NCBI GenBank assembly: GCA_965153355.1
Contig: OZ231126.1
Location: 34,658,001-34,722,000, forward strand
Direction: 5' to 3'
DNA: 64,000 nt
From: Flaccisagitta enflata
Taxonomy: Eukaryota
The notes beneath the pieces are model-generated. The model made no database searches. It was not told the DNA's origin and saw only the letters and a list, made by a program, of their open reading frames with translations. Position 1 is the stretch's first letter, and each line of letters starts with the position of its first letter. A program made the position numbers and the translations under genes. Shown piece after piece: positions 806-46,784 of the stretch.

Positions 806-1011
806 AAACCAGTAACAATTGATTGTGGTTGAGTAATTATAAACTTTGCAATTGTACAGCCGAAATGGTTAAAAATTGGTGGCTTATCTTCTCAGGTCAG
901 AAGGTTTAACTAATTTGAACCCCTCGTTCAGATATGAGTAGAGCCTCATTGATTTTGATTTTATACTTTTTATGTTTTGAATTGCATTGATTCATTGCTG
1001 TCATGGTTTAT
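806..1011 (+). repeat. 206-bp intra-viral repeat, copy 1 (inverted copy at 11697-11902; partial tandem copy at 1117-1272)
   Basis: Manual alignment with the reverse complement of 11697-11902 shows 2 mismatches. Confidence 0.95.
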
Positions 1012-1450: not shown

Positions 1451-1485
1451 TTTAATCACATAATAAATAAATCATCCATATTCAA

Positions 1486-3846
1486 TTACATAAACAATGT
1501 CAAATCTTTGCCACTTTTCTCACAAAGATCTTCAATGGATAAATGCTTAAAACTAGAACCTTTGACATAAACAGATTTGTCTAGTGTATTACCCATCACA
1601 AGACTGTTTACTGACTTGAAGATTCCGACATCCGCTACAAATTCAATCACTAATTGATACAGTGCATTATTGTTTATGTAGCTCATACAACACTGGCCAG
1701 GCGAGAAACGCATCCTTTCATCAGCTAAACAGTTTAGATACAATTGTTCATGCAAGTCGCAAAATCCGAGATTCTTGAAAAACCGCTTTTTCCAATCGAC
1801 ATAGTTTCTTAGATATTCAGGACTTGAATCAGTTCGCACCAAAAAACCATCAAACGCAAGTGATACTCGCTTGAATTTGCACAAAGATGTAGATAAATGT
1901 CCAGTTTTAAACTTGACTATAATCCCGTCAGTATTTATCCTTTGAACCGAACACGACTGGTCGCCAAAATATGTTTTTGCACCGGCAACAAAGTTTAGCA
2001 TCACGGCGACTCCAGTTGCGATAACATTCAAATGCATATGTGACAAATTGCAAACCGGCCTATCGTCTCTCATGTGCAATAGCACTTTTGTATCATTTAC
2101 TCTCGTGCAATGACTAAGTGTACTCGGTGAATTTAGATGGGCTAGATCAGATTCGTTGATGAGTAGGCTTTTTTTATGATTTTTTGGATTGAAATTCATA
2201 CATCCAATTTGTCCATTTAGACTTATTTTCAAGATAGATGAGAAAAGTGAACTCCCTTCTTCATTTAGTGCACCCTGTACGGGCCCACGCAAGCGAGAAA
2301 ATGGATTTTCCCGCGCAGTAGCATACTCATATACGTGAAAAATCTTAGTCACTGAAAAGTCTTTGAATGAACCATTGTTAAGCATTTCTCGTAATAAGCA
2401 CGTAGGGATACACTTCTTCTCGACGTCAAATGTCTGACGGGCGTCACCATTTTCATCTTTAAAGAATAGGGGCTTTACCGAGTCTAACAAACTTTGACAT
2501 ACTGGCCCAAAATCACAGGACACTACTGCGTAGCCGTTCAATTTGCCATTCTTTATGCACTCTAAAACTTGCCTCTCTGTCAAATAGGGGAACTTAGAGA
2601 GTGGGAAGGCATTTTCACAAATTTCTGCCATAAGGTTTCCCAGTATCCTGTCCTCATATGGTTTATCAACAGATAGTTTCCACTGCGCGAAAAACTCTCT
2701 TACAGTGCGACTCCAAAATTTCAATATAGTACATTCCCAAATAACAATGACGTTTAGACCAGCCTCTTTCATATTTGCTATCTTTTGTTTTGTTGATTCA
2801 TAAATTTCCCCGTAGGATCGTGTTTTGTGATAAAAGTGCTGTGAGTCAACAGTCTCACCCTCCCTAAATCGCCACAGTCTCGGTCGTACAAAACTGTACT
2901 CCCTTGAGTTATCCGCCACACAAACGTCACATGTCCGTGAATGCCCGGGGTATTCTGCATCTATCACCTTCTTAGGTAAGTGACAGATACCATTGTGTAC
3001 CTTAGTTGCCTCGTCTGGATCTGGGTCTGTATCCGTGTCACTTTTTAACCCATGTATTCCACACCCCTCAATTTCTACCACATAGGCATTACCATCTTTT
3101 GTGAAATACCCATCCACAGGCTTCCCATCAAAAGACAATTCCTTTGAGTGTAGCAAAGAGACAGTTGATGTGCCAAACACAGTTTCAATTAGTTCCAAAA
3201 CAACATTTGAAATAGTTTTCCTCCTTCTCGTTCGTTCTGGCACAAAAATTCCATTTTTCTTATCTTCTCTGTACTCAACTGGAATCCCCACACACAACTT
3301 AGCAGTAGGGTTGCTTAGAATATTGAAGTAAAAACGCTGGAAATCAGATGATATTGCACTCTTGAAGCCACATTGTGGCGCTATTACGTCACTGCCCCCA
3401 AATGACAGCAAACCAAATCGCACATTCTTGTTAAAGGTATCCTTCTGAAAAGCTACAGGCGACGTTATAAACATCCTCTTCTCGGGACCTGTCATGCTAT
3501 TGGCCAAAAGCTGGTGCCCAATTTGACCTACACTCAATCCTGTTATGTTTAAGCCGAAGTAATGTTCAAATTTCTCAATTGCTGTAGCCCACTCCACCAC
3601 GTGACTGTCTCTGGCCACAGGCTCCTTAAATCTTGGTGAAAATTCACCCAAAGACATATATCTCACTGGACTCCCTTTTATCGATATTCCTTGTAACACA
3701 TTCTTTCCAAATCTCACACCAAACGAATCACACTCATAGTCGCCACTCAACGTCGACAAAAAACAGTGCATCACGTCAGTGGGCGTAAATCCATCCTCAC
3801 ATCCCACCTGTATGTAGCATGCAAACGTTGACAAGAATTCTATCAT
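1486..3846 (-). CDS. pPolB: Protein-primed family B DNA polymerase, C-terminal part, with inserted Vsr-like nuclease domain
   Basis: Motif A-like SSDFQRFY, motif B-like LKISLNGQIG, motif C-like INTDGII. PVDGYF..VVEIEGCGIHG..GLNVIVIWEC matches the Vsr-like insertion of Maverick pPolBs. Confidence 0.85.
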   Translation of the reverse strand: MIEFLSTFACYIQVGCEDGFTPTDVMHCFLSTLSGDYECDSFGVRFGKNVLQGISIKGSPVRYMSLGEFSPRFKEPVARDSHVVEWATAIEKFEHYFGLNITGLSVGQIGHQLLANSMTGPEKRMFITSPVAFQKDTFNKNVRFGLLSFGGSDVIAPQCGFKSAISSDFQRFYFNILSNPTAKLCVGIPVEYREDKKNGIFVPERTRRRKTISNVVLELIETVFGTSTVSLLHSKELSFDGKPVDGYFTKDGNAYVVEIEGCGIHGLKSDTDTDPDPDEATKVHNGICHLPKKVIDAEYPGHSRTCDVCVADNSREYSFVRPRLWRFREGETVDSQHFYHKTRSYGEIYESTKQKIANMKEAGLNVIVIWECTILKFWSRTVREFFAQWKLSVDKPYEDRILGNLMAEICENAFPLSKFPYLTERQVLECIKNGKLNGYAVVSCDFGPVCQSLLDSVKPLFFKDENGDARQTFDVEKKCIPTCLLREMLNNGSFKDFSVTKIFHVYEYATARENPFSRLRGPVQGALNEEGSSLFSSILKISLNGQIGCMNFNPKNHKKSLLINESDLAHLNSPSTLSHCTRVNDTKVLLHMRDDRPVCNLSHMHLNVIATGVAVMLNFVAGAKTYFGDQSCSVQRINTDGIIVKFKTGHLSTSLCKFKRVSLAFDGFLVRTDSSPEYLRNYVDWKKRFFKNLGFCDLHEQLYLNCLADERMRFSPGQCCMSYINNNALYQLVIEFVADVGIFKSVNSLVMGNTLDKSVYVKGSSFKHLSIEDLCEKSGKDLTLFM

Positions 3847-5405
3847 CCTTTTTTAACATTTAGCAAATTTTCAACTCTAATCGGATCAGTTTTGGAGGTT
3901 ACTAAGTTGCATTCAGTTTCAACCCTTTTCATCAATGAATAGTTCTGTTTTAATCTCTCACCCAACACAAATAGTGCCGCTTTTGTGCAATTTTCAGCTA
4001 CAATTTTTGTTGCACAACGCAAATCCGGGGCAGTGACACTTTTCACCAAATAGTCGCTGTTCAATAAGCTAAATGACATTTTTACACCAATGCCAGTCCC
4101 GTCTTCTAGTCTATTCATTTGAACATGCATGAATTTTGTGTCGCTTTTTAACAAGTTATCCATGCCAAAGGTCCGTTCAACACCAGTCGATAACGAATAG
4201 TTCCACTTTTGCAAAGTACCCCCTCTGGATCTTATGTGCTTACACTTGTGATTCTTCAATTCATGTGCATATCTATAGCACTTGGAACATGTGTTGCATA
4301 TGTATTTGTGTGCGAACGTGGGTAGATTTGTGACGGACCATATGTGACGGCGGCCGTCCGTAGCCAAAAATATAGTATTTGGTCTTCGTTCTTTAGAGGC
4401 AAACTTCACTCTTAAACAGCGTGCCATTTTCGTGGTATCCTTTAATCCATAGAACCCCACTTGCTTTTTGACCAGTTTTACTTGTTCAACCAAAACTATT
4501 CCCACTTTCAGAAACCTCTCCAGTACACACATGAGTCGAGAATCATATCCTTGATCATTCACCGGGTCGACAAAGTAATCGTTGTTGAAATTTCGCTTGT
4601 ACCATTTTAAAAACTGCACTTTAAGTCTTCTTGCAATTTTCTGATTTGTCCGTTTTCTCACACCATTTCGCAACACTGGCCGGTTTTCAGCGTCCATGGT
4701 AATTACGGCACTAATTGCTCTCCATATGCAATTGTTTCTATCACACATACCAGAGCTGTCACAGTTGTTGTCACTTAGAGACCGCGGTGCGTAGTTTTGT
4801 GAGGCGCCAAAAACGGTGGCCGTGTTTAATGTCAGATAAAAATTAACTGTTACAGGCACCAAAAATCCTTCATACTTATTCTCCAGATTTTCCATTGATC
4901 GTAGAAGCCACCCTTCCACCGAAAACTCAGACACAATGTTGTCGACGAAGTGGTTTAAACTGGAGACACTTTCGATGCTATGCGCACTGTCCAGACAGGC
5001 AAAGTTCCCACGACTTGCCCAAATGAACGTACCGGACGTGTTGAATGGGTCCTTGTCGTCCAAAACTAGCAAAGACATGCTGAAGTTAATATGCACACAA
5101 GTCCTTTGAGCGGCGAACTGTGTCATCAATATTGATTTTAAGAGTCGAAGAAAGTTTGGATGATCTCCGAATTTTGAACACCAGTAATCCACGTTCCCAG
5201 CATATTCCGTCGGTCTCAGATTTGCTATCCTTATTGCAATTTCTGAGCAAAAGCGTCCAGGCGCCGTCACTAAACTAGACTTCACATTGTGGTAATTGTG
5301 CTCCAGAGTCGGACGAATCGTGGCAGAATAGTCACGAGGCAATACAGTTTGCATGTCCTGTTCCTCACGCAAGATTGCATTTATCTCACCCTCAGAGAAA
5401 GTCAT
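3843..5405 (-). CDS. N-terminal part of pPolB (terminal-protein region, zinc finger)
   Basis: Overlaps the downstream ORF by ATGA next to an A6 run. Contains NNCIWRAIS and YICNTCSKCYRYAHELKNHKC, as in Maverick pPolB N-termini. Confidence 0.75.
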   Translation of the reverse strand: MTFSEGEINAILREEQDMQTVLPRDYSATIRPTLEHNYHNVKSSLVTAPGRFCSEIAIRIANLRPTEYAGNVDYWCSKFGDHPNFLRLLKSILMTQFAAQRTCVHINFSMSLLVLDDKDPFNTSGTFIWASRGNFACLDSAHSIESVSSLNHFVDNIVSEFSVEGWLLRSMENLENKYEGFLVPVTVNFYLTLNTATVFGASQNYAPRSLSDNNCDSSGMCDRNNCIWRAISAVITMDAENRPVLRNGVRKRTNQKIARRLKVQFLKWYKRNFNNDYFVDPVNDQGYDSRLMCVLERFLKVGIVLVEQVKLVKKQVGFYGLKDTTKMARCLRVKFASKERRPNTIFLATDGRRHIWSVTNLPTFAHKYICNTCSKCYRYAHELKNHKCKHIRSRGGTLQKWNYSLSTGVERTFGMDNLLKSDTKFMHVQMNRLEDGTGIGVKMSFSLLNSDYLVKSVTAPDLRCATKIVAENCTKAALFVLGERLKQNYSLMKRVETECNLVTSKTDPIRVENLLNVKKG

Positions 5406-5779
5406 TTTCGTGTCAAGCTCATAGGCATTTCATCATAATCAATCTGAAATAAACAACATCAAAATCTATAACATGACATTGAGTAACCAATGCATCACCA
5501 ATGACCAATTTTAATGAGATTTCATATGCAGTCTATTTATACAATTCAGAATAACGAGCAAAATCTATGCAAATCAGTCACTTATTCGTTGATCATGCCA
5601 CAACGCTCCACCGTTGCACCAAAGTCAATTTATTTGTCCAAGGTCACGGGAGTCATGAATGTCACGATGTAGAAATTGTCACTTCTTTATATATGTGATT
5701 CGAATGCGCGATTCGCCTTACGCTTAAGAAAGGCTCTCTCGTCTTCCGTCAGACTCTCCAACCTGGAACACATGTAATT

Positions 5780-6058
5780 TTAATCACATTTCTTCTTCTG
5801 TTGCACTTGCGACACCACTAACCCATCGGATATGACGCACCCGTGACTCGAAATGGGCCTCGGTTTGGGCATAGAGTAGCGATGACGCCGTTTTCTCCGT
5901 CCACCTCTCATCCTCTTCTTTCCATGTCTCCTCCTCCTCCTCCTTCTCTTTCTCCCTTTCTTCCGCCGCCTTCTTCCTCGCTTCCTTACTCCACGCAACT
6001 GTTTCTTGAGACAGGAAACGTATCGACCTTTCGCGTCGCGCTTGACCTTCACCATCAT
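5780..6058 (-). CDS. Arg/Lys-rich protamine-like virion core protein
   Basis: 92 aa with RKRGRRRRKKGRKRRRRRRRHGKKRMRGGRRKRR; lies directly downstream of the MCP. Confidence 0.7.
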   Translation of the reverse strand: MMVKVKRDAKGRYVSCLKKQLRGVRKRGRRRRKKGRKRRRRRRRHGKKRMRGGRRKRRHRYSMPKPRPISSHGCVISDGLVVSQVQQKKKCD

Positions 6059-6154
6059 TAATGATTCACTGCCAAATTAGAAAAAAATGCAACTACACAT
6101 AAACCAACTCAAATCATCAATTTTTATCCAGTAGCAATCAAATTGTACAAATGG

Positions 6155-9340
<3,186 letters not shown>

Positions 9341-9472
9341 CTTTGTTGTATTGTCACAACCTCCACCTTGTCGCCAATCAGATCTTGCCTCTTTTTTTTT
9401 TCCTTACTGCAATATCAAATAACCACGACATTTAATCATGTCAAAGTGTCCATTTCAATGAAAAAAAAAGAA

Positions 9473-10072
9473 TCATTTCACATTAACACTGTAGAGCGAA
9501 TCGTTGAACGAATATTCCTTTGACATCAATTTTTTTTTCAGTAGCAAGCCTAATTTCTTCTGAAAATAACGCGAATTTTCCTGATTATACTCAGAGCAAA
9601 TAAATCGGGTGATGTAACTGCGACTCACTCCATATTTCATTCCAGATGACATGGCCGCATCCAACATCTTCTCGAATTCGGCAGAAGTAACCACATTTCG
9701 CCCGTCATTCCCAGGCTGGATCGTCATCCCGTTCTGCACCTCGATTACGTCTTTAACACGGGACTTGATTTTTTCCACATCAACGCAGACCATCCGCAGC
9801 TGCCCCTCCAAGTACGCAACTCTCTCCTCCATGGTCAAAGTGAGCAGTTGCTCATATCCCATGCTCTCAACCTCTGCACCTCGCACCCCGACGATGCCAT
9901 CAGTACATTCTTCATCCACAGCCGCGGCGCACATGAAATCGTCGTTGTCAATCGCCAAAGTTCCACATTCCAGTGGCGCGTCAGCTTGCGCATCGTCTTC
10001 TGCGCAACCGAAACCATCCTCTCCCAAATTCTTAACTTTTAATCCATCCAACACGTCATTCGAATCCGCCAT
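9473..10072 (-). CDS. Viral protein with acidic N-terminus, coiled coil and C-terminal linker-histone H1/H5-like winged helix
   Basis: FEKMLDAAMSSGMKYGVSRSYITRFICSEY..FQKKLGLLLKKKL parallels the H15 pattern YSEMI.AAI....RGGSSRQSI.KYI..HY....IKLSIRRL. First ATG is at 10072. Confidence 0.6.
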   Translation of the reverse strand: MADSNDVLDGLKVKNLGEDGFGCAEDDAQADAPLECGTLAIDNDDFMCAAAVDEECTDGIVGVRGAEVESMGYEQLLTLTMEERVAYLEGQLRMVCVDVEKIKSRVKDVIEVQNGMTIQPGNDGRNVVTSAEFEKMLDAAMSSGMKYGVSRSYITRFICSEYNQENSRYFQKKLGLLLKKKLMSKEYSFNDSLYSVNVK

Positions 10073-10340
10073 CTTCACTCCCTTTTCCAACGCCAGTCAA
10101 TTTTTAGGTAACGAGTAGCGTCTATTTCAAATCCAAATGACCAAAATCTTCCAAAATTTTAATAGTAATCCAACAATCCTTTTTTTTTCACAACGTCTAT
10201 TTTTGGCAAACTCAATCTGAGAAAAAGGTATTTACATCATATTACGATCTCAATTTACAACAAATACACATATCAATACAATTTTTTTCCAACACTCATC
10301 ACCAAGGATATACAATTCTTTCGGTATTGCAATGTAAACA

Positions 10341-11033
10341 TTACATAAGCGGTTCAGGCCAGCCCTTCTCATCTCCATCAACCCCTTCACCACTTTCATC
10401 TCCTTCATTCCCATCAACAAACAAAGTCTTTCTCACGTCTTTCCAGGCAATTCTCTCCCGTTGGATGCAAAAATCGCATATATCGACGTCCATGTTCATC
10501 CCAACGGGCACGCAGTAGCAGGGGTTACTCATTCTCCATTCCCTCTCCATGCAAACGTCGCAATAATCCGGAAAGTCGCAGGGGCAGGGGTCACGCGACG
10601 GAGTGTCCTGCAAAACAGCAGTGGCGGTCTTCTCTGCCACCATCTTCATTCGCGCTTCTACCACATCCGGCGTCACGGTTGAATTTCTTGGACTGAACGT
10701 CTCCATCCACGCCTTCTTTGCTTCGCTACTCATCATCGGCGTAACGATCAACGCACTCGTCGCCTCCACGGATGCGTCGCCCACCTTACTGCCTCCTTCG
10801 GCGCCGACGCCAAGTGGAATGGAATGGCATGCCAAATCGGGTAGATCGGGTAAGCCGGCGCCAATGATCATTGTCTCAGTTTGTTCTGATTTTCCATCGT
10901 CGTCTATCACCACTCGCAACACCCACTCCTCCAAACCATCTGCATCCCCAAACCAAGCACCACATGACCCAAGTCCAGCTACACCAACTTTGCAGTTGCA
11001 TTTACAACTACAATTGCATTTATTGGCATCCAT
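10341..11033 (-). CDS. Orphan viral protein with two CxC..CxxC motifs
   Basis: 230-aa ATG ORF co-oriented within the cluster. Confidence 0.6.
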   Translation of the reverse strand: MDANKCNCSCKCNCKVGVAGLGSCGAWFGDADGLEEWVLRVVIDDDGKSEQTETMIIGAGLPDLPDLACHSIPLGVGAEGGSKVGDASVEATSALIVTPMMSSEAKKAWMETFSPRNSTVTPDVVEARMKMVAEKTATAVLQDTPSRDPCPCDFPDYCDVCMEREWRMSNPCYCVPVGMNMDVDICDFCIQRERIAWKDVRKTLFVDGNEGDESGEGVDGDEKGWPEPLM

Positions 11034-11249
11034 TTTGATATGTACTATGCGTCATTCACTGTCAATCCAATGATATCTTTCAATCTGCAAATCAACAAAT
11101 CACAGCCACATTTAGCAACACAATTTTGAAGTAATTAACCATTTTCATCAATTATTAATTGCGACTACAAATCACAAAACAAATACTGATTCTGTATGCA
11201 TATTTGTATGTGAGCGTGGTAGATTGTTCCGTCTCTCCTCCAACTCAAT

Positions 11250-11681
11250 TTATGTACGTGGTACAGCGTTCCATCTCTCCCCCATCCATTTTGCCACGAC
11301 TTCCCTTCTTTCCTCACTAACCTTCGCCAGTCTCTCCTGAAAAATCTTCTCCTCCCTCATCATCCTCCTCTCCTCTCTCTCCTCCTCTTTCCGCTCCTCA
11401 TATGCCTCTCTCGCTCGCCACCTACAACTGCGGACACAAAGTTCACACAAATCGTGTATGTGCCTGATCTTGAAACAGCTACAGTTTTCATAGTTGTATC
11501 GCTTCCTCGGCGGTCTCTGATGATCCCCAAACTTGTCGTCAAGCGCCATCTTCTCCTTACTCCACGCCAGCGATGTCGAATAATCCAAAGTCAACTTTTC
11601 TACTTCATTGGCCAACTGCATACCCTCGTCCATTCCATTGTTTTTCTCTGCATATACACAGTCACAAAGCATTTTCTTCAT
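11250..11681 (-). CDS. Orphan viral protein (CxC..CxxC plus charged helix)
   Basis: Co-oriented ORF. The ATG at 11681 follows a TTTCAG acceptor-like site; an upstream in-frame ATG is at 11705. Confidence 0.55.
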   Translation of the reverse strand: MKKMLCDCVYAEKNNGMDEGMQLANEVEKLTLDYSTSLAWSKEKMALDDKFGDHQRPPRKRYNYENCSCFKIRHIHDLCELCVRSCRWRAREAYEERKEEEREERRMMREEKIFQERLAKVSEERREVVAKWMGERWNAVPRT

Positions 11682-11696
11682 TGAATATCTGAAACC

Positions 11697-11902
11697 ATAA
11701 ACCATGACAGCAATGAATCAATGCAATTCAAAACATAAAAAGTATAAAATCAAAATCAATGAGGCTCTACTCATGTCTGAACGAGGGGTTCAAATTAGTT
11801 AAACCTTCTGACCTGAGAAGATAAGCCACCAATTTTTAACCATTTCGGCTGTACAATTGCAAAGTTTATAATTACTCAACCACAATCAATTGTTACAGGT
11901 TT
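11697..11902 (-). repeat. 206-bp intra-viral repeat, inverted copy
   Basis: Reverse complement of 806-1011. Confidence 0.95.
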
Positions 11903-11918
11903 TCTACCATTCAAGTTA

Positions 11919-13064
11919 TCACGCCTGCAACAAATCTTCGCCACTGACACCAACGTTGTTGTTGTCGACGTTGCCGTTGTCACCATTTTCACCACCAGCA
12001 TCGGCGTTGTCGTTGTTAACGCCACCACCATCGCCACCGACGTTGTTGTCGCTAGGGACCAACAGATTCATCGCCATCTCCCATGTTTCCGCCGACATCG
12101 CCACCCACACCTCATTACCATCGTTAACATATGCCAGCGCCTTCTCCATCAATCTGTTACCAATGTCTTTGTCGCCATTCTCACCACCGGTGTCGACGCC
12201 ATCGACGACGTTGTTGCCATCGTCGCCGCTGGCGCCGTTAATGCCGTCGTCGTCATTCTCGCCACTGACGTCGGCGCCGTTGACATCGTTGTTGCCATCT
12301 TCACCACCGGCGTCGTTGACGCCACCGTCGGCATCCGCGCCACCCACGTCGGCGTCATTCACACCGTCGTCGTTGTCGTCGACATCTTCATCGCCGACGT
12401 AAATGGCGTCGTCATTGTTGTCACTGACATCGCCGACATAGTCGCCATCATCGTCGACATCATCGTCGTTGCCGTTGTCGCTATTGCCTACACCACCAAT
12501 CGCACCACTACCACAGACCTTCACCGACCTCCACTTCTCGAAAAGCCTCTGGCATTTCCGCTTTTCGCGTTGCCAGTCATCCATGTGCGCATGCCACTGC
12601 TGATCAATCCTCCTCCTTTTGAACCTTTCAGGTTCATCGCTCTCGTTCATCACCTGGCCCTCTACTTCAAACTCCGCCGACTTCAACTCCCACTCCTTGT
12701 CAATCCTCCTCTTCCTGCCCGCAACACGGACGCACTCGCTGTAAACCTTCGAACCAACCGCCATCACCCCCTTCACGTACGCCGCCATCTTCGCCAATGA
12801 GTACGACGTCCCCTCGGGCGCCGCAACACCAGATGCATTCGGGTCCTCCAATGACGATAACGGAGCACGCGTCAAGGCAACCGAGTTTTCAGAGTCTTTC
12901 CTCTCATATCTCCACACGGCGCCACCATAATCATCCAATGCGATTTTCGGTGGCTTTCTGCGATCCTCGCCTTCCTTGCCGTCGGCGCCATCCTTCAACG
13001 GTACGCATATCAGCCTGTAATGTTCTAAACAGTTGTTGTTCAGCCCATTTATGAAAGCCTCCAC
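11919..13064 (-). CDS. Orphan viral protein with duplicated KRRID.W motif and D/N/G-rich tail
   Basis: 381-aa ORF with RKRRIDKEW and KRRRIDQQW; TATA-like TATATAAATA upstream at ~13242-13251. Confidence 0.65.
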   Translation of the reverse strand: MEAFINGLNNNCLEHYRLICVPLKDGADGKEGEDRRKPPKIALDDYGGAVWRYERKDSENSVALTRAPLSSLEDPNASGVAAPEGTSYSLAKMAAYVKGVMAVGSKVYSECVRVAGRKRRIDKEWELKSAEFEVEGQVMNESDEPERFKRRRIDQQWHAHMDDWQREKRKCQRLFEKWRSVKVCGSGAIGGVGNSDNGNDDDVDDDGDYVGDVSDNNDDAIYVGDEDVDDNDDGVNDADVGGADADGGVNDAGGEDGNNDVNGADVSGENDDDGINGASGDDGNNVVDGVDTGGENGDKDIGNRLMEKALAYVNDGNEVWVAMSAETWEMAMNLLVPSDNNVGGDGGGVNNDNADAGGENGDNGNVDNNNVGVSGEDLLQA

Positions 13065-13314
13065 TTCGTCGATCCGGGCGGTTCATGACTCTTCCCGGGG
13101 TATTTCCCTCTTGCCCACGCTTCTAGCAGCACACAAAACCAGAAATTTTTTTTGCACATTGACGCGTGCACGTGAGTGGTAGGCAAACCGGCAAACATTT
13201 TCTTGTATTGATGGGTAAACCTGTAAACATGATATATACAATATTTATATACATTCACAAATGACGTGACTTACAAATTCAATCAATGCATCATCGACTC
13301 TTTACATCAAATTA

Positions 13315-13752
13315 CTAATCAGAGTCACTTGTATCACCACTTTCACTTTCACTGCTCGAGTCAGAAGACGAATCACTCGACGACGACTCTGAAGTACTAC
13401 TTGAGTCCTCGGACATCTCCTCTTTTTCCTTCTTCTTTACAGACTTCGATTTTTTGCTCTTTTTTTTCCGCTTACTACCAGTTTTTATTCCAGGTTTCTT
13501 TACCACGCTGCCCTTCTCGGTCTTTTTTTTCACAGCTTCCTTTCTTCCCCTTTTCTTCGGATTAGTCTTTTTTGCTCCACCATTTGATTTTTTTTTCGTG
13601 TCTTCTTTTCCATTTTTTTCGATAGTTTTCATATCCTCCTTGTATGTTTCCAAAGCGTCACTAACTTCAGTTGAAGTCGACATAACTGCAGCATTGCTAC
13701 TTCCACGCATTTTAGCAGCAATTGCTGATAGGGCATCACTGCTTATCGCCAT
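13315..13752 (-). CDS. Lys-rich / Ser-acidic low-complexity viral protein
   Basis: 145 aa; starts 5 nt after the minor capsid stop. Confidence 0.6.
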   Translation of the reverse strand: MAISSDALSAIAAKMRGSSNAAVMSTSTEVSDALETYKEDMKTIEKNGKEDTKKKSNGGAKKTNPKKRGRKEAVKKKTEKGSVVKKPGIKTGSKRKKKSKKSKSVKKKEKEEMSEDSSSTSESSSSDSSSDSSSESESGDTSDSD

Positions 13753-13756
13753 CTAA

Positions 13757-14629
13757 TCAAATTTTTTGAACAATATTCAATACAAATCTCAATGATTGGG
13801 TTTTCAAACAACAGCCAAAATCAAATGCTTTGAAATCATTATTTAACAAAGAAAAACTTATGTTTCGCATACCCACAGCATCGAAGCTTTTGTACGGCGA
13901 TGTAATTTTCTTCTCCAACAAATCATAACTACACACAACGCCATACTTGCCACCATTAAAATACATAGTGGGTTCTACACATCGATCGATTACCAAATGA
14001 CACATCCTTTCATCTTCTCTGAAAAATTGTACGGGTACACTGCAATTTAAGGGCTTACATATCTTCATAGATTCAACATCACACGTGGGCGCCAAAACTT
14101 TGTCTTCATTTTTTCTATTTTTAGCATCAGTTACTTCATCTTTAAAGCCCATGAACTCAAAAAGATTCATTGTAGCAAAAAATGCAAAATATTCATCCAA
14201 AATTAACTCGAACATGCCATCTACATAACGCACCGAAAATATGTCCATTACTTCATCCCTTTCCGCTTTATTGTCATCAAATGATTCGTCATCCTTTTTA
14301 ACACACTTACTCTTATACACAAAGTCATTATAAACGGCACATCTTAGTTGCTGAGCAAATTGGGTTAGGCTACTAAACACAAAAGTGTACTCCTTAACAG
14401 ATTCCCTGCATATATCAGCGGTATCAATCCCATAATGCATCGCAAAAGTAATACTCTTTTCAATAGGTGGTAATGTAAAATCTGTAACGCTCACATACAA
14501 TCCTTTTTTGCCACCAGAGTTAATGTGTAATCCAGGAAGATTCATGTGAAAACTGCTTGTTTCTTTCAGGAAACATCCATTAGAGCGTGTGTCGATTTGG
14601 ACCTCCGTCACGCTCTCCATCGCGGCCAT
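13757..14629 (-). CDS. mCP: Minor capsid (penton, single jelly-roll) protein
   Basis: N-terminal VQIDTRSN..TSSFHMNLP..LYVSVTDFTLP and C-terminal YKSF..RNISFSLLNNDFKAFDF..LRFVLNI fit the Maverick penton pattern. First ATG is at 14629. Confidence 0.7.
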   Translation of the reverse strand: MAAMESVTEVQIDTRSNGCFLKETSSFHMNLPGLHINSGGKKGLYVSVTDFTLPPIEKSITFAMHYGIDTADICRESVKEYTFVFSSLTQFAQQLRCAVYNDFVYKSKCVKKDDESFDDNKAERDEVMDIFSVRYVDGMFELILDEYFAFFATMNLFEFMGFKDEVTDAKNRKNEDKVLAPTCDVESMKICKPLNCSVPVQFFREDERMCHLVIDRCVEPTMYFNGGKYGVVCSYDLLEKKITSPYKSFDAVGMRNISFSLLNNDFKAFDFGCCLKTQSLRFVLNIVQKI

Positions 14630-15119
14630 GGCATCGATCGTCGATTCCAGCAACCACGACACGATCAACTTCTTCACTCCTCGCACCCAAATTGAATGCG
14701 ATCTCAGGACCACTGCGTCGATTCAGGCTAATTCTGACCTTCCCCGACACGCACCTACAGACGACTGCAATGGTCAAAACAGCCGCGGCGACGAACACCA
14801 GAAAATTCACGCATACGCCAACAGCCTTCAACAATCCGGGATCCGGCCCAAACTTCACAGTTGGGATGTCTCCAATCGCCCCTTCCTCCTCCCACCAAAA
14901 ACCACCACTAACGTCACCACCGCCGCGAACGTCGTCACTACCTTCTAGGTTAGTAACTGTCCAATTCACAACACTCTCCACAGTGACTTTGTCAACGTCG
15001 CCTCTTCCCTTGTCCACGCCTCCCACAGTCCCGTTTGGTACGTCCAAAGCAACCCAATAAGCGTCCCGAAGAGACGTTCCATTCACCGGCATAGTTTTTG
15101 ATTTTTTTTTGGCAAACAC
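14580..15119 (-). CDS. Single-pass membrane protein of unknown function
   Basis: Hydrophobic segment AVGVCVNFLVFVAAAVLTIAVVC; lies between integrase and penton. Start codon uncertain. Confidence 0.55.
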   Translation of the reverse strand: MFAKKKSKTMPVNGTSLRDAYWVALDVPNGTVGGVDKGRGDVDKVTVESVVNWTVTNLEGSDDVRGGGDVSGGFWWEEEGAIGDIPTVKFGPDPGLLKAVGVCVNFLVFVAAAVLTIAVVCRCVSGKVRISLNRRSGPEIAFNLGARSEEVDRVVVAGIDDRCHGRDGERDGGPNRHTL

Positions 15120-15148
15120 CTAAATTTTGTATCACAATATATACAGCA

Positions 15149-16324
15149 TCAATTTAAAGCATTTTTAGTGCAGTAAAATGTTTCATCACAATTTTGAGGC
15201 TTCAAATATACATAAACATCATCACGCTTAACAACCTCAGAACTATAAAGTACATTCAGATATCTCGCCTTGGGTAAACTCAATTCGGCATAATATTTCA
15301 ATTCCGCACAACTAAATCTCGAATCACTCACTGGTGCCAAATTAAAAACTGACGATAACAAATGATAATTCACAAATTCAATATTTACAATGTCTGTAAC
15401 ACAATAGTAATTAGTCGAAATTGACCCATACGATTCCTTTGCAAACATGCCATCTTTGGGTGCAAATTTTCTCACTTTCACTATGGCAAACAATGGTAAT
15501 TTAGTCGGCCTTATCATATTGTTCCTTGAAGACTTCCTCCTTCGAAACCGATTTCCAGCCTTTATGTTCCTTATGTGCCGTGGGTCTTGATTCAATGCTT
15601 CCTTGCTTGACATGAAATTTAAACTCGACCTTGGCTTCGAGTTGACAGCATTTTCAATTTCAAGCAATTTTTGTGCAAATGGCACATCATTCCCAATGTC
15701 ACGCATGTAAACTTCTAGATACGATCTGAATAAGCGTATACTTTGTTCGCAAACCACGTTTCCTTTACCCTTCCGTTCAAGCCTTCTTTGCCTGATGCCA
15801 TAAAATTTCAGGCCCTTGCTTTTAAAATACTGAGTTATTGTGTTGCTAAGCCATTCCACGCCTAAATCTCCCCAAATCTTCCTCGCACGTTCTGGCAGAT
15901 AAGGACTTCTCCGAAATATATCTTCAAAGGATTTTATCACCGAGTTACTTTTTGTGCTATAGCAACAAGAAAAATAACTATACAGAGAAAGGCCACATAC
16001 CATAACAAGGACGTATCGCGGACTTGAGCTTCCATAACTCCGGTTTTTGCTCAAATGACACAAATCCACATTGAGCCATTCAATGTAGTTGGGCGGAAGT
16101 ATCCACGGTCGTGACAATTCACTGGCTTTCCGTTTACTGTCATTTTTTATCAATATATCATTGCTTTTTTGCTCCGCAAGGTACTCCTTTATCTCACTCT
16201 GCCCCACGTCGAATCCCTTCTTCTTTAAATATTTTCCAATCTGCCTCGCATTCTTAGACAGAAACAACGGGGAACCTTTACCCCTAATGGCCTTTTCCAA
16301 TATTTCTCTTGACTCTACTCTCAT
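15149..16324 (-). CDS. INT: Retroviral-like (rve) DDE integrase of Maverick type
   Basis: WLNVDLCHL (D), KIWGDLGVEW (D), VVCEQSIRLFRSYL (E), plus RYVLVMVC..S.Y and VNSKPRSSL. Confidence 0.9.
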   Translation of the reverse strand: MRVESREILEKAIRGKGSPLFLSKNARQIGKYLKKKGFDVGQSEIKEYLAEQKSNDILIKNDSKRKASELSRPWILPPNYIEWLNVDLCHLSKNRSYGSSSPRYVLVMVCGLSLYSYFSCCYSTKSNSVIKSFEDIFRRSPYLPERARKIWGDLGVEWLSNTITQYFKSKGLKFYGIRQRRLERKGKGNVVCEQSIRLFRSYLEVYMRDIGNDVPFAQKLLEIENAVNSKPRSSLNFMSSKEALNQDPRHIRNIKAGNRFRRRKSSRNNMIRPTKLPLFAIVKVRKFAPKDGMFAKESYGSISTNYYCVTDIVNIEFVNYHLLSSVFNLAPVSDSRFSCAELKYYAELSLPKARYLNVLYSSEVVKRDDVYVYLKPQNCDETFYCTKNALN

Positions 16325-16347
16325 TTCTCATAATTAAATGTCGCGCT

Positions 16348-17358
16348 CTACTCTCTCCGTTTTCTCTTCCCCCTCCCCAACTCCTCCTCCTCACCCACAA
16401 AGTCAACTGTCACCTTCTTCCTCTTCGACCTTGACGTGGGATTAGCCTCCGTATCCCACTCGTGTAAAGCCTCTTCTTCCGCTTGTGGGGTTTCCAATGT
16501 TACCTTTCTCTTCCTTGGATTACTACCACTCACGGCATCTCGCCATGTCGAAGAAATCTGTTCGCGTAATTTCGGTGCTGTGCGAATTTTGTTAAGAGAT
16601 CCACTAGAGAGACCATACGATTTTTTAACTGGGTTTAATATACTTTCTTCAGCGTCATCGTCGTCGTCCTGCTCCAACCCTCTTTTCGTTCCACGCCCAC
16701 CGATTCCCGCTGATTCACCAACTCTTTCGTCACTCGCCTGCTGGGCTCCTTCCGACACAGTCTCAGTTGCAGGCGATGTATTTTCAACACTAGACAATCC
16801 TTTACTCTTTATCTCTTCAATTTTTAAAAGGGATTCGCGGATCCCCAACGCGTCGCCGTGTCTCAACAACTCAAGGGGAATCTTAATCTTGATTAAGCTG
16901 TCCAAAAACAGCGCAATTGCCAAGGGAATTTGAGATGGACTTGCCGATATGCAATATTGCACCAAATTTTTTATATTAGAAAATTTGATGTTTTCACCAT
17001 TCACAATAATCTCCAGTGTATCCGGATCAAAAGTTATGTAGTCACTTCTATCAATCTCATTCAGCAAACTCTCATTCAGCAAACTCATTGCCAACTGCTT
17101 CTCTTTTACGCCACTTATTTCATTTACAATTCGATGTATTGCCGCTTGAATTGGACTCTGAATTGGCACCGAGTTAGACTCCACTGGTGCCTCGGTAGTA
17201 TTGCTCGGCAGTTCCTCGCCAGATGGCAACACTTTCAATCTTTTTCCGTCTATTAGATTTCTGATGCTATCCAACTTCTCTTCACAGGTAACGTCTGCTT
17301 TGTTTATAATTTTTAACACATGTGGGGTTTTTAAATAATTGGTCTGATGTTCACTCAT
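16348..17358 (-). CDS. Maverick-like conserved accessory protein
   Basis: YITFDPDTLEIIVNGENIKFSNIKNLV..FLDSLIKIKIPLELL resembles, from memory, the conserved protein next to the ATPase and integrase in Mavericks; basic NLS-like C-terminus. Confidence 0.65.
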   Translation of the reverse strand: MSEHQTNYLKTPHVLKIINKADVTCEEKLDSIRNLIDGKRLKVLPSGEELPSNTTEAPVESNSVPIQSPIQAAIHRIVNEISGVKEKQLAMSLLNESLLNEIDRSDYITFDPDTLEIIVNGENIKFSNIKNLVQYCISASPSQIPLAIALFLDSLIKIKIPLELLRHGDALGIRESLLKIEEIKSKGLSSVENTSPATETVSEGAQQASDERVGESAGIGGRGTKRGLEQDDDDDAEESILNPVKKSYGLSSGSLNKIRTAPKLREQISSTWRDAVSGSNPRKRKVTLETPQAEEEALHEWDTEANPTSRSKRKKVTVDFVGEEEELGRGKRKRRE

Positions 17359-17680
17359 GGTGTAGGCAGTTTTTCAGAAAATCGGCAATGATGTAGGAAT
17401 TAAACAGTTTCCTTTCATTCTTCTTCAATTTCAAAAACTTTTTTTTTCTTTTTTTCAACGAAATGCGACTGTTTTTCAAAAAAGACAGAAGCTTCTTACT
17501 TCTTTTCATCTTCTTTCTCGTTTTTGAAGAAAAGCACTTGTCAAATCTCCGCTTGGATGCATTTTTAACTATTTCAACTACGCATTCAAACACACTAGTT
17601 TTGAGTTTTTTTTCAAAAAGAGCGTCTTCCACACACACATTCACTAAATTCTTCAGTTTTTGGGGTGATCTACAAGCCAT
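17351..17680 (-). CDS. Small basic Maverick-like accessory protein
   Basis: FECVVEIVKN..KKMKRSKKLLSFLKNSRISLKKRKKKFL resembles, from memory, the small basic ORF that follows the Maverick ATPase. Confidence 0.65.
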   Translation of the reverse strand: MACRSPQKLKNLVNVCVEDALFEKKLKTSVFECVVEIVKNASKRRFDKCFSSKTRKKMKRSKKLLSFLKNSRISLKKRKKKFLKLKKNERKLFNSYIIADFLKNCLHHE

Positions 17681-17691
17681 CCGTATGCCAT

Positions 17692-18786
17692 CTAATCCTC
17701 CTCCTCACTACTTTCATGGTAACTTGTCATCGGACCGTCCTCGGCAAGTAAAACCCGTCCCCAGAGCGTCGGTTTTGTGCACATAGGACTGACACAAGCT
17801 ATCACGTAATTAAAATTTTTTCCAAGTACTTCCCGCTTATAGACATCAAAGAGGGTCTGTCCCGCTTTTAAATTGATTTCGTAATTATTCATATGACGCT
17901 TAGCCGCGCGACGCTTAGCCGCGCGGGCGTCGTGCGAACTTTTAAAAAACACAAGATGACTTGAGTTCATGAGTATCACATTTAACTTCAACGATTTCAA
18001 AAAGATGTCGTAGCTGTGAAGGCAGATTATTGATACACACCCCACGTGATGAGTCCATATGCCAGCCAGGGAAATCAAATCCTTTCTTATCTTTTCATCA
18101 ATATTCGCATCAAAAAAGTAGTCATCTATCACTATAATTGTCGAATCTTGCACAGGTTTGCAAAAATCTAAAAAATTTCCATCTGGAAATTTTTTCGAAA
18201 ACACGGCTTCCACGCCACGCTCCGTTGCCAAATGCGTCCTCAGTCTTTCTATACTTTCACAATTTTCCTTGTAGAAATATATTATTTTCTTTATTTTCTG
18301 TCGGAAGTGATATTCATGCTCAATTAACAAGTTTGTAATCCAGGTTGTCTTGCCTTTAATTAACTTGGTCACAAAAAATAAACATTTCTAATTTTAAGTA
18401 ATTGGTAGCCCCTAATCAAAGCCCATTCAAACAAAAAATTGCCCAAAATCCTAGGCAGCTCACTCAAACAAATCTTAAGTAATCAGTAACCCCTAATCAA
18501 AGCCCAATCCAATGAAAAATGGTCAAATATTACAGGCAGCTCAAATCTTCGGTAATCGGTAACCCGTAATCAAGACCCACTGAGCTAAAAAAATGCCCCA
18601 AAAATCCTAGGCATCTTACTCAAACAATTTTTATATAATCAGTAGTCCCTACTTCTACATAAATTATTAGCTAATATTTTTTTGTGACCAACGACCAGAG
18701 GACGACTGTCCAAATACGCAAACAAAGTTGCCCGGAAAAAATTGATGACTTTTTGCAGAATAAATTTCACTTTTTTTTCCAGCCAT
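17692..18786 (-). CDS. A32/FtsK-like DNA packaging ATPase, 2 exons
   Basis: Exon 1 18786-18696 (MAGKK..FVCVFGQSSS G) plus exon 2 18353-17692 (KTTW..) rebuilds Walker A GQSSSGKT. Walker B is IIVIDDY; THH.G and MNSSHLVFFKS motifs also present. Confidence 0.9.
18365..18691. mobile_element. TIR-bounded element filling the ATPase intron
   Basis: TTGGTCACAAAAAA..TTTTTTGTGACCAA; three internal ~80-bp degenerate repeats (..CCCTAATCAAAGCCCA..). Confidence 0.7.
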
Positions 18787-18934: not shown

Positions 18935-21900
18935 CGAGATGAGGTGCTTTAGGGCATGGTGCTCGCCGTGAGCTGTCCGAAGAGTTTCTTCCGTCGAGTT
19001 AAAATGTGTCTGAAATCAAACGTCACGGCGCCGAAAAATAACGCCCCGCATTCATGTTGAATGAATGAAGCATTTGATGAAATGAGCACAATTGCGATTC
19101 GAAAAGGATTGGCGAATAGCGAATTTAACAAGACCGACGAGAATGAAGATTTTCACGTGATGCTACATCAGCCATGCCAAACGTTTTTCTGTCGTTTGCT
19201 CGCATTCTTACCTTGTAGAGTTCTTTTTCCTTTTGAAGACCTCGGGCTAAGCCTTGCGCCTTATCTAGTTCTTCTTGTAGCTCTTTTAAGGCCGTTTTAG
19301 CAGCTGAAAGCTCGCGGTCGGTCTCATCCTTGTGACGCTGCAGCGATGTAACTTCCTGTTTGCCTCGCAATGACTCTGTCTCTCTATCAACGGCGGCATC
19401 CTTAAGGGCTTCAATCTTCTCTTGTTTCGTTTGCACGGTCTTCTCCAAATCGGCAACCTGACAGTGTCAAAGATTATCAAGCGACGATGGTACACGCTAC
19501 ACAGACCTGGGCAGATGCTAACTATACTACCCTACATGAGGAGTGGCGAGTGGGGCGTGGGGAGTGGGGAGTGGCAAGTGCCTTTTTTTGGTTTTCTCTT
19601 TTCAAACTCCTGAATCCTTTTCAATAAATGCCAAAAACAGTGTAAATGAAAGTATTGGGCGTCTCCTATAGGGAACGCGACGAGTGGGGAGTGGGAAAAA
19701 CAAAAACACGCAAAAATACAGAAACCTGAGTGGGGAGTGGGGAGTGGAGAGTGGGGAGTGGCAAGTGATTTTTTTTGGTTTTCTCTTTCCCAACTCCTGA
19801 ATCCTTTTCAATAAACGCCAAAAACAGTGTAAATGAAAGTATCGCGTGTCTCCTATAGGGAACGCGACGAGTGGCGAGTGGGAAAAACAAAAACACTCAA
19901 AAATTAGGGACCGGGTTGAGTTTAGGGTTAGGGACCGGGTTGAGTTTAGGGTTAGGGACCGGGTTGAGTTTAGGGACAGGGACCGGGTTGAGTTTAGGGA
20001 CAGGGACCGGGTTGAGTTTAGGGACAGGGACTGGGTTGAGTTTAGGGTTAGGGACTGGGTTGAGTTTAGGGTTAGGGACCGGGTTGAGTTTAGGGTTAAG
20101 AACCACATTTCAAAAAAAGTTGGCTTTAAAGTTGAAAAACTTTGCCAAACGCTGGTGTGATATTTATTAACTTTGCCGAAGGCAAAGCAAAGTTTTCAAT
20201 TTTGCTGACTTAGCCTTAGAAATACATGCTATTTCCAAGTGGGAAAATTTTGTTTTGCCTTCGGCAAAAGCGAAAAAACTTTGCTTTAGTCAAAAGTGAA
20301 AAACCTTGCCTTCAGCAAAGTTTTTCAACTTGATAAGTAAGGTAAATACTAACATCTCAACTCTAAAATTCAACCCAGTTAGAGTTGGTTAGGATTGAAT
20401 AAGGGTATGGTAAGAGTTGAGTGTTTAAGGTTTGGGTTGTTTGAATGTATGTTGCTAATCAAGTTGAAAAACTTTGCCGCAAATGAATAAATTTTTTCAA
20501 CTTTGCCGAAGGCAAAGCCAAGTCTTTCCACATCACATGTCATTTCTACTACCTTGGGGATGATTTTAACAAAACTGCTGGTTTTATTTTTGTTTTGTAT
20601 AGCCTGTAGGTGCAAGAAATGGAATCTACCAGCTTTTAAATCATCCTAAGGCCGGATTTTGAGAAAAAACACTTTTTTCCCATCCTGAGGTACAGGTCAT
20701 TGAATTTTCCCATGTTTATCTTGTTTTGCTCATATCTTTTGAACGAAAAGAGCTAGAAATGCCAGATTGGTCCCATTTTAAAGATCTGCTCAAGATCTTT
20801 CCAACCGTCACCAATTTTTTGTAAATCCGTTGAAAAATGCCCGAGATATAAGCACTCAAACATAGGGTATGTTATGAGGAATATTGACTATCTTCCTGGT
20901 CATTGATTTCTTGTCATAATTCTACTTGTTTTGCTCATAACTTTTGAACGAATAAGGCTAGAAATGCCAGATTGGTCTCATTTTAAAGATTTTTTCAAGA
21001 TCTTTTTAACCGTCACCAATTTTTTGTAAATCTAATAAAAAATGCTTGAGTTATGACTTGTCAAACATAGGTAATGTCATGGGAATCATGGAGGATTTTC
21101 CCTACTATGCGAATTAAAAAAAAAGACGCACCTTTTTATTTGATGATAAAACTGACTTGAGAATTGTTTAAAAAATTTATTAAAGAAAGTGATTTTGAAG
21201 ATTTTAAAGTTATCTTTCATTCTAGACCAATCCCAGATCTGTATCTTTAACGGTTTAGGAGCTAGAGCTCTCTAAAGTGAGACACCATTTTGGTGAATTG
21301 CATCTTTTTCAAAGGAACTGCAAAAACAAATTTGGCAACATTTTCATCAAACTAATGCCATTTCTAAATGAAAAAAGATAGAGATACCAGATTGGCGCCA
21401 AATGAAAGAGTTTTTCAAGGGCTTCAAAATGATCTATGATTTTAATTAGTTTCTATGATTGTCAATGGCGCAATCAACCATTCAAAAGTGCGTCTTTTTT
21501 TTAAATTTGTATAGTACTCTTATTCTCGCTTTGTCTATTGGTTGGTCCATCAGTCAGTGGGTTTGTTGGTTGTTCAGTTGGTCCATCAGTTTGTAACACT
21601 TAGCTTTTTTGAAGTTTACAGGCATTTTTTGCATTACTGCGACTGCCAAAATGTTTCCTCACCTGTAGAACACAGGAGGAATTCCCATATCTCAAACCTG
21701 AAATCATTCCTCTCAGTCCTCAAATCAGTGCTTTCAGGCTTTGATTGGCCCTTCAAATCCTCAAAACAACTCCCTCAAACCTCAAATTAGCCCTCACAGG
21801 CTTCAAATTAGCAGGGGTGTATATAGTTGCACGACCTTTGATTTCTCTCCCCCCCTGGTCCTTTGATTTTCTTCCCCGCGGGGTCGAAATACATTTGTTT

Positions 21901-46270: not shown

Positions 46271-46784
46271 ACCCTTGGGACAAAAACTTTATCCCCTTCC
46301 ACACACACCTACAGCTACACACAAAACCACACACACACACCAACACACACTGCACTCAATAATAACTGCGTGTTTATTGCACTTTCAACTCAAAACGTGA
46401 TCAGCCAACAGATGGACCAACAGATGGACAGACAGAGCCCCTTATATAGAGCTGCATGTCCTCAACAAAAAAGGAAATGTTTCAGCAGATAAGGAAGCTA
46501 TAGGTTTCATGACAATGTTATTAACACATTGTGGCTAAAGAAATAATTGGTATACAATAAAAATGATGTGCTAAAAACAAATGGTCGATCCGCCTCCCCA
46601 CTGGCCATGGGCTTTTCTTCCTCCTTGGCGAAAAGGCTGAATCCAAGGGCAGGGGCAAGGGTCTCGCTAGGTAGGTTCCCAACTATTTTGATGGGGTTTC
46701 TGGGTTTAAACCTCTAGATTAGTTCACTTAGACAGCCTGTACAAACCGGTTCAAGAATCCCTGCATAAGTTTCATCCTTATTAT

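Follow-up and report, generated by a model that had tools for sequence, protein, structure and literature searches.

Does a Maverick-like element in an animal genome encode a protein built around the globular domain of linker histones, and, if so, what might such a protein do without a histone tail? The question is raised by a stretch of 64,000 nucleotides from Flaccisagitta enflata (assembly GCA_965153355.1, contig OZ231126.1, positions 34,658,001-34,722,000 of the forward strand), referred to below as the window. An open reading frame (ORF) at 9473-10072 on its minus strand, here called the H15 gene, encodes a protein of 199 amino acids that closes with a predicted winged helix of the linker-histone (H15) type. 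A sequence-only reading of this DNA had described a virus-encoded H1-like domain next to a capsid gene and had proposed a chromatin-binding or histone-mimic function. In the analysis presented here, sequence profiles and predicted fold, taken together, make the H15 assignment firm; the function of the protein and the nature of the element around it are weighed in turn.

An H15-type domain at the end of an acidic protein

The H15 ORF is uninterrupted, with an ATG at 10072 and a stop codon at 9473-9475, and it is a real, intact gene, more than a chance frame. A word-indexed search with the 199-residue protein, in which 121 candidates were assessed, returned 21 relatives at E ≤ 0.01 that are 98-41% identical to it and mostly 196-199 residues long. 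An exhaustive HMMER search, in which a profile of 20 close sequences was run against 1.84 billion representative proteins, extended the family to 47 proteins at E ≤ 0.001, with 25 of them at E ≤ 1e-10 and seven at E ≤ 1e-30. Among the proteins looked up, family members carry neither names nor NCBI or UniProt accessions, and the longest contigs that hold them measure 13-17 kb. Searches for synteny did not find related loci in IMG/VR or JGI metagenomes.

The protein falls into three parts. Residues 1-70 form a poorly conserved arm in which 19 Asp and Glu face 3 Lys and Arg, giving a net charge of -16 and an isoelectric point (pI) of 4.05; residues 1-69 are predicted to be disordered, with predicted local distance difference test (pLDDT) values below 50 in the final AlphaFold2 (AF2) model, which was built from a 48-sequence alignment. 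Residues 81-117 are modelled as a single helix at pLDDT 93-97, and the 3-4 hydrophobic spacing of a coiled coil, read from the sequence, spans M81-V109 and is regular over residues 81-109. The segment 119-199 has a net charge of +5 and a pI of 9.44, the protein overall a net charge of -13 and a pI of 4.50, and the chain terminates three residues past its last β strand, without a Lys-rich tail. The acidic region, the heptad coiled coil and the missing tail, all of them claimed in the sequence-only reading, were thereby recovered.

Full-length relatives follow a common plan, in which a variable acidic N-terminus is succeeded by a helix and then by a conserved C-terminal domain that closes the protein. 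The median net charge across 42 relatives is -16.5 before the domain and +5 inside it. The best conserved part of the family is the C-terminal stretch of about 70 residues: one relative (P0006) shares 83% identity with the window protein in the domain and 45% in the N-terminus, and a more distant one (P0020) shares 66% and 27%, respectively. In the helix region, 15 of 31 relatives show an exact 7-residue deletion with respect to the window protein, the kind of change that a coiled coil would tolerate, and 11 of the 31 align without gaps.

The sequence evidence for an H15 domain comes from the Pfam Linker_histone profile (PF00538; 74 positions, gathering cut-off 22.4 bits) and from family profiles compared with all PDB chains. 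The window protein matches PF00538 at E 0.0028 and 18.3 bits, with residues 136-185 aligned to profile positions 7-57. Among 31 diverse relatives, 24 match at E ≤ 1, with a lowest E of 1.2e-07. Individual scans of ten distant members gave eight matches at E ≤ 0.01, and three members lie above the cut-off (P0035 at 32.2 bits, P0037 at 25.2 bits and P0029 at 23.8 bits). Six of the 20 close relatives match the profile. When the 31 diverse sequences were combined into a wider family profile, the top 12 rows of the PDB search were all H1.0 or H5 (E 0.0031-0.022), and the rows below them were unrelated coiled-coil proteins aligned to the helix. In these alignments, the family motif G-V/C-S-R/K-x-F-I-R-R-F-L lies over G-S-S-R-Q-S-I-Q-K-Y-I of H1.0, and the basic third helix of the family lies over I-K-L-S-I-K-R-L-V. 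The window protein is therefore placed among H15 proteins by transitive homology through its family, and not by its single-sequence score.

The predicted structure points in the same direction. The domain of the final model follows the order helix, short strand, helix, helix, β hairpin (α1-β-α2-α3-hairpin), with helices at residues 130-143, 151-162 and 168-183 and strands at 187-190 and 193-196. Over residues 131-199 the pLDDT is 89-97, and the means of ten-residue blocks counted from residue 131 are 95, 91, 96, 93, 97, 95 and 89. A wide VIA structure search of 48,161 PDB representative chains ranked the H5 globular domain first (1hst_A; Z 10.1, root-mean-square deviation (rmsd) 1.9 Å, 68 of 74 residues) and H1 in a chromatosome second (9j8o_n; Z 9.5, rmsd 1.6 Å, 67 residues), followed by the winged helices of Forkhead, Fur, Hel308, H1.8 and MORF at Z 8.8-8.9. 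In a Foldseek search of the PDB, H1/H5 chains made up 19 of the first 22 rows, with target-normalised template modelling (TM) scores of 0.31-0.79 and rmsd values down to 1.6 Å, the first row being the H15-like winged helix of MORF (E 0.023, 27% identity). In BFVD, the top two rows were proteins annotated as 'linker histone H1/H5' from Clandestinovirus (E 8.7e-03) and Pithovirus LCPAC102 (E 2.3e-02), at probability 1.00. The H1/H5 globular winged helix that had been aligned by eye over the last 70 residues or so thus holds at the level of family profiles and of a confident model, both a winged-helix fold and H15 profile matches having been found.

An ORF that arose by chance, or a winged helix of generic type not specifically related to H1, would agree with the sub-threshold Pfam score of the single sequence, and also with the behaviour of a first AF2 model built from the 20 close sequences. 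That poor model had a mean pLDDT of 58 and drew the wing as a low-confidence helix; its structure search gave tied winged-helix matches at Z 5-6.5, H5 already being top at Z 6.5, its Foldseek search gave no match at E ≤ 0.001, and it was replaced by the 48-sequence model. Such a reading is effectively refuted by the conserved family, in which the domain is conserved above the rest of the protein, by H15 profile matches above the cut-off and by a PDB search whose top is occupied entirely by H1 and H5.

Departures from linker histones and a proposed function

Taken as a whole, the product of the H15 gene falls outside the linker histones, with a pI of 4.5, a short wing and no Lys-rich tail. With the globular domain of H1.0 and H5 (PF00538; PDB 1hst, 6hq1) it shares fold and topology, profile homology and the best structural matches, together with a G-x-S-R/K motif ahead of helix 2 and a basic helix 3. 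The domain of H1/H5, however, lies near the N-terminus, whereas that of the window protein is C-terminal, is preceded by a coiled coil and belongs to an acidic chain that lacks the Lys-rich C-terminal domain.

According to the Medusavirus study, the DNA-binding sites of H1.0 contain the basic residues K40, R42, K52 and R94, which serve compaction, as well as K69, K73 and K85 (PMC11500106). These contacts were mapped onto the window protein through the HMMER alignment to H1.0, in which the spacing K-x-R-(9)-K anchors the numbering of K40, R42 and K52. The family is basic opposite H1.0 R42, R47, K52, K69 and K73/R74, where the window protein has K146, R151, R156, K173 and K179/K180, and R94 falls outside the aligned stretch. 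Judged from these residues, DNA binding through helix 3 is likely.

On balance, and with restrained confidence, the H15 protein is taken to be an oligomeric DNA or chromatin binder of a multi-copy Maverick-like element, serving as an antagonist or substitute of H1 that does not compact DNA. The winged helix would bind DNA via its very basic third helix (QKKLGLLLKKKL) and the basic counterparts of R42, R47, K52, K69 and K73, probably with little sequence preference and at H1-type sites, while the coiled coil would make a dimer or trimer that holds two or more DNA segments. In this manner, the protein could occupy H1-type sites on the element genome or on host chromatin, either keeping them open or engaging basic partners, for which host histones, host H1 and the element's own Lys-rich protein are candidates. 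Given the strong acidity of everything else in the chain (pI 4.5 for the whole protein), the H15 protein would be expected neither to neutralise DNA nor to compact chromatin in the manner of H1; and as the acidic half cannot neutralise linker DNA, the protein may be a competitor or replacement of H1 by which chromatin stays open, or an adaptor through which basic proteins are recruited to DNA. The more general role of chromatin binder or histone mimic, as offered by the sequence-only reading, is plausible, but the protein is without the basic tail and the net positive charge that define H1 as a linker histone. A two-copy complex prediction for residues 70-199, run with the alignment unused and without controls, scored 0.02 and is silent on oligomerisation.

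Several observations weigh against this account. The window protein alone stays under the PF00538 cut-off, and PDB sequence searches with the single protein or with the narrower profile of 20 close sequences gave no H1. In VIA, H5 and H1 are ahead of other winged helices by just about 1 Z unit, a margin too small for an H15 domain to be told apart by its fold, and no Foldseek match in the PDB or BFVD reached E ≤ 0.001, which in the case of the PDB is because the query includes a long disordered part. The counterpart of H1.0 K40 is M145; relative to H1.0 and H5, about five residues are missing from the wing hairpin, so that the loop bearing K85 is absent, and the turn of the hairpin has no basic residue. 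From the sequence, an H1-like on-dyad mode of nucleosome binding is not assured. When the 14 ORFs besides the H15 gene were scanned against Pfam, no hallmark gene reached threshold, and no packaging ATPase of the FtsK/HerA type or adenain-like protease was recognised. Additionally, the single RNA-library contig listed maps to 10104-10330, which is upstream of the H15 coding sequence, and none lies inside it; the RNA run (X18) covers 7 of the 30 bins of the window.

The nearest known parallel is MM-H1 of Medusavirus medusae, which is likewise a virus-encoded, acidic protein with an H1-like winged helix. MM-H1 has a pI of about 5, conserves K40, R42, K52 and R94 incompletely, leaves tri-nucleosomes and arrays uncompacted and is not packaged, and its authors propose that it acts on host chromatin accessibility (PMC11500106). 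It differs in having two winged-helix domains and no coiled coil, in belonging to a giant virus (Nucleocytoviricota) and in standing near the H1 of its amoeba host; the window family, unlike MM-H1, stands far from any cellular H1 and resides in a small Maverick-like element. The best viral structural matches to the window domain, the H1/H5 proteins of Clandestinovirus and Pithovirus LCPAC102, are longer (226 and 330 residues), are 16-20% identical to it over 85 columns and show no sign of a shared architecture. A further likeness is to the non-histone, H15-like DNA-binding winged helices of MORF/KAT6B, KAT6A and SAMD1, with MORF at Z 8.8 in VIA; these proteins differ in being large multidomain cellular enzymes or readers. 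The winged helices of MORF, KAT6A and SAMD1 read CpG-rich DNA.

Full-text literature searches (supplementary gene tables excluded) yielded no published report of an H15 or linker-histone gene in Mavericks or Polintons, in agreement with the earlier remark that the standard gene set of Mavericks does not include such a protein. The adintovirus description, in the portion seen, names accessory genes including SET and TRAF, but no H1. In the literature searched, virus-encoded linker-histone-like proteins are reported from giant viruses only, and among these the Medusavirus protein is the one with a biochemical characterisation. In the H15 protein, a known domain appears within a new architecture and in an element class not known to carry it. 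If the proposed function is correct, manipulation of chromatin at H1-type sites would be a recurrent strategy of viruses and transposons and not a peculiarity of giant viruses, the carrier here being a roughly 17-kb Maverick-like animal element and the family being independent of, and far more divergent than, Medusavirus H1. The protein would also provide a small, tractable system, namely an H15 domain with an acidic tail in place of the basic one, and its annotation gives a name and a fold to an unnamed metagenomic family of 47 representatives.

The same three parts can be read as those of a sequence-specific transcription factor, which would switch on the promoters of the element by means of an acidic activation arm, a dimerising coiled coil and a forkhead-like head. 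Arm, zipper and winged helix compose a classical activator layout, and the forkheads Fkh1, FOXM1, FOXN1 and FoxA1, members of a class with the H5 fold, reach Z 7.8-8.9 in VIA, near H5 and H1. In addition, the 8-mer CAGATTGA is enriched in the window, where it occurs nine times against 3.4 expected, a count that none of 100 shuffles reaches. Its coding-strand copies are at 5439, 10212, 11080 and 12149 on the minus strand, and it stands upstream of three of ten ORFs, namely those of the polymerase, the H15 protein and a Cys-rich protein, with a pyrimidine tract before it. This motif could be a promoter element or a shared splice or trans-splice acceptor; the pyrimidine tract and CAG that it follows suit an acceptor and thereby count against the transcription factor. 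As the sequence profiles favour H15 over forkhead or other factor families, and the regions upstream of the ORFs yielded neither a palindromic nor a repeated operator, the transcription factor is held to be unlikely, albeit worth keeping in view.

Two further possibilities involve an ORF of 145 amino acids in the same gene array, whose centre is Lys-rich and for which Pfam, PHROGs and NCBIfam scans gave no family match. Its likeness to an H1 tail or a viral core protein extends no further than composition. The H15 protein might act in the virion or in the handling of the genome, as a core protein, a packaging factor or a binder of genome ends, with its arm chaperoning the Lys-rich protein onto DNA and its winged helix tethering the complex to the genome or to the genome termini. 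Acidic proteins that chaperone basic, DNA-condensing ones are well established, and the H15 gene follows the capsid remnant in gene order. Nevertheless, this role appears improbable: there is no evidence of virion association, no terminal inverted repeats for binding are defined in the window, and the acidic H1 of Medusavirus is described as not packaged (PMC11500106). A long shot is a 'split, inverted linker histone' encoded by a lineage of Maverick-like viruses of marine animals, in which the acidic H15 oligomer would dock at H1 sites of nucleosomal DNA while the Lys-rich protein gives the tail in trans. If this were true, the two proteins would enable a small virus or transposon to package its own genome as chromatin, or to evade silencing by stripping off host H1, and they would form the first module of chromatin architecture known beyond giant viruses.

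The surrounding Maverick-like element

The features of the H15 gene and its surroundings are collected in Table 1. The ten ORFs of at least 145 amino acids within 1486-17358 all lie on the minus strand, as the H15 gene does; the exceptions to this array, at 9651-10118 (plus strand) and 14580-15092, overlap longer ORFs and are probably spurious. No ORF of the array attains a Pfam threshold.

Table 1. Positions, strands and supporting evidence of features in the window
Feature	Position	Strand	Basis or comment
pPolB-like gene as two ORFs, 3843-5405 (520 aa) and 1486-3846 (786 aa)	1486-5405	-	Homologues; ESM Atlas
Double-jelly-roll capsid, C-terminal remnant, 179 aa stop to stop	6155-6694	-	ESM Atlas lead
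Repeat-filled stretch, capsid remnant to H15 gene	6700-9400		CT microsatellite, 30/59-nt and TCAC repeats, host repeat
ATTAAA, possible polyadenylation signal	9431-9436	-	37-42 nt past the stop codon; putative function
Acidic coiled-coil H15-domain protein gene (P0001)	9473-10072	-	ORF translation; 21 close homologues; 47 representatives at E ≤ 0.001
C-terminal winged helix of H15 type (residues 127-199)	9476-9694	-	PF00538, PDB profile matches, AF2, VIA, Foldseek
Coiled-coil-like long helix, residues 81-117, about 4 heptads	9722-9832	-	AF2; hydrophobic spacing; 7-residue deletions
Acidic, disordered, poorly conserved N-terminal arm, residues 1-70	9863-10072	-	Charge count; pLDDT; low identity to relatives
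Cys-rich ORF, 230 aa, directly upstream of H15 gene	10341-11033	-	ORF list
Inverted repeat of intergenic 206-nt segment	11697-11902 vs 806-1011		99% identical; second partial tandem copy 1117-1235
145-aa ORF, Lys-rich centre, Ser/Asp/Glu-rich C-terminus	13315-13752	-	Possible basic DNA-condensing partner
Divergent DDE (rve/IS481-type) integrase candidate, 391 aa	15149-16324	-	Weak NCBIfam match

The Maverick/Polinton-like nature of the element stands at the level of leads only, and the polymerase and capsid resemblances taken from the ESM Atlas are leads from language-model similarity, not tests. The earlier claim of a virus-encoded, Maverick gene is accordingly upheld in part, in that polymerase, capsid and integrase leads speak for it, while Pfam gives no support and neither ATPase nor protease was recognised. 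The claim of a position next to the capsid gene holds in a loose sense only: the capsid-like ORF closest to the H15 gene is a remnant, and about 2.8 kb of host repeats lie in between.

The pPolB-like gene is so called for its resemblance to protein-primed family B DNA polymerases. Among its homologues are 12 single proteins of 1292-1310 amino acids, the closest of which (1306 amino acids) is 99% identical, so that the window copy, with its 520 and 786 amino acids, is recognised as split. For the 786-residue ORF, clusters of PF03175 account for 24 of 30 ESM Atlas matches, at a score of 0.94. Neither the window ORFs nor five full-length homologues match Pfam, and no PDB polymerase was retrieved even with a 12-sequence profile. 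The motifs D-x4-Y, K-x3-N-x3-G and N-T-D, presumably polymerase motifs, are invariant across the 12 homologues; family B polymerases usually have D-T-D where all 12 read N-T-D. Each of the 12 also contains a Cys/His-rich insert and a C2H2-like finger.

The capsid remnant, from which the N-terminal part is missing, reaches a score of 0.97 in the ESM Atlas (215 of 256 features), where its clusters are PF21738 (double-jelly-roll-like), MCP_V20_C and Capsid_NCLDV; no Pfam match and no longer relatives were found for it. The integrase candidate resembles the IS481 transposase of NCBIfam over residues 26-236 (E 5.7e-05, 22.8 bits against a cut-off of 224), and it has no match in Pfam, including rve, or in the PDB. 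Across the neighbouring ORFs, PHROGs and NCBIfam scans gave sub-threshold matches only.

With Mavericks, Polintons and adintoviruses the element therefore shares a pPolB-like gene, a double-jelly-roll capsid remnant, a DDE integrase candidate, intronless genes and a multi-copy state in an animal genome. It differs from Mavericks and adintoviruses in that none of its genes was recognised as encoding a packaging ATPase, a maturation protease or a penton protein, and in that no terminal inverted repeats were defined; the ATPase and protease may have been lost in the 6700-9400 gap or may be too divergent to detect. The Cys-rich ORF has a single match, to the chromatin-remodeller domain SWIRM-assoc_3 (E 0.008, 16.8 bits, cut-off 27), a resemblance that is probably due to chance.

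Copy number, repeats and minor features

Copy number was followed as summed contig depth in one sequencing run (X3). The depth is 1,463-4,449 over 9388-13534 compared with 311-680 over 13854-18300, and across 9388-13534 that of the H15 gene is continuous with that of the neighbouring ORFs. Many variant letters and internally deleted forms of the element appear in the same run, and element DNA is present in several marine metagenome studies and in runs of a single organism, X3 among them. Contigs from other copies skip 13876-15174 (1297 bases) and 15246-16212 (965 bases), which removes most of a 290-residue ORF and of the integrase candidate, so that internally deleted derivatives exist. The element forms a multi-copy family, and the H15 gene is within the same high-copy block as its neighbours.

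These data bear on whether the H15 gene is instead a host cellular gene, or a recently captured fragment of host H1, lying amid transposon debris with no role in the element. The degraded surroundings, with a split polymerase, a truncated capsid and inserted repeats, would fit such an origin, as would hallmark genes that are backed by leads only. The gene, however, is intronless, co-stranded and tightly packed with its neighbours; many intact variants, 50-98% identical, occur in multiple copies and across several marine metagenome studies; and no cellular H1 is found among the 47 significant family representatives, the proteins looked up being nameless and the longest contigs no more than 13-17 kb. 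A host origin of this kind is accordingly regarded as very improbable.

Among the repeats that separate the H15 gene from the capsid remnant is a host repeat (8750-9387), whose depth in run X3 is 489,172-1,005,368. A copy of this repeat, 74% identical, is located at 21887-22127. The inverted pair 806-1011/11697-11902 was considered as the termini of the element and rejected, since the depth stays high across 11902 and falls only near 13535; the left end (806-1235) has its inverted counterpart only inside the element, at 11697-11902, and none at the right edge. The pair could stem from rearrangement or from a mis-join, or it could be a promoter or terminal module that was duplicated.

A long acidic ORF rich in Asp, Asn and Gly (11919-13064, minus strand) holds a 78-nucleotide tandem repeat at 12171-12358, the length of which varies in other copies, as seen in the joints 12203->12284 and 12358->12284. 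Elsewhere in the window, a 127-residue ORF at 46783-47166 (plus strand) looks by eye like the conserved C-terminal tail of a protein from a retrotransposon without long terminal repeats (non-LTR), consistent with an animal host. Just past the element, at 19904-20098, lie eight tandem copies of a 24-nucleotide unit with TTAGGG-like motifs.

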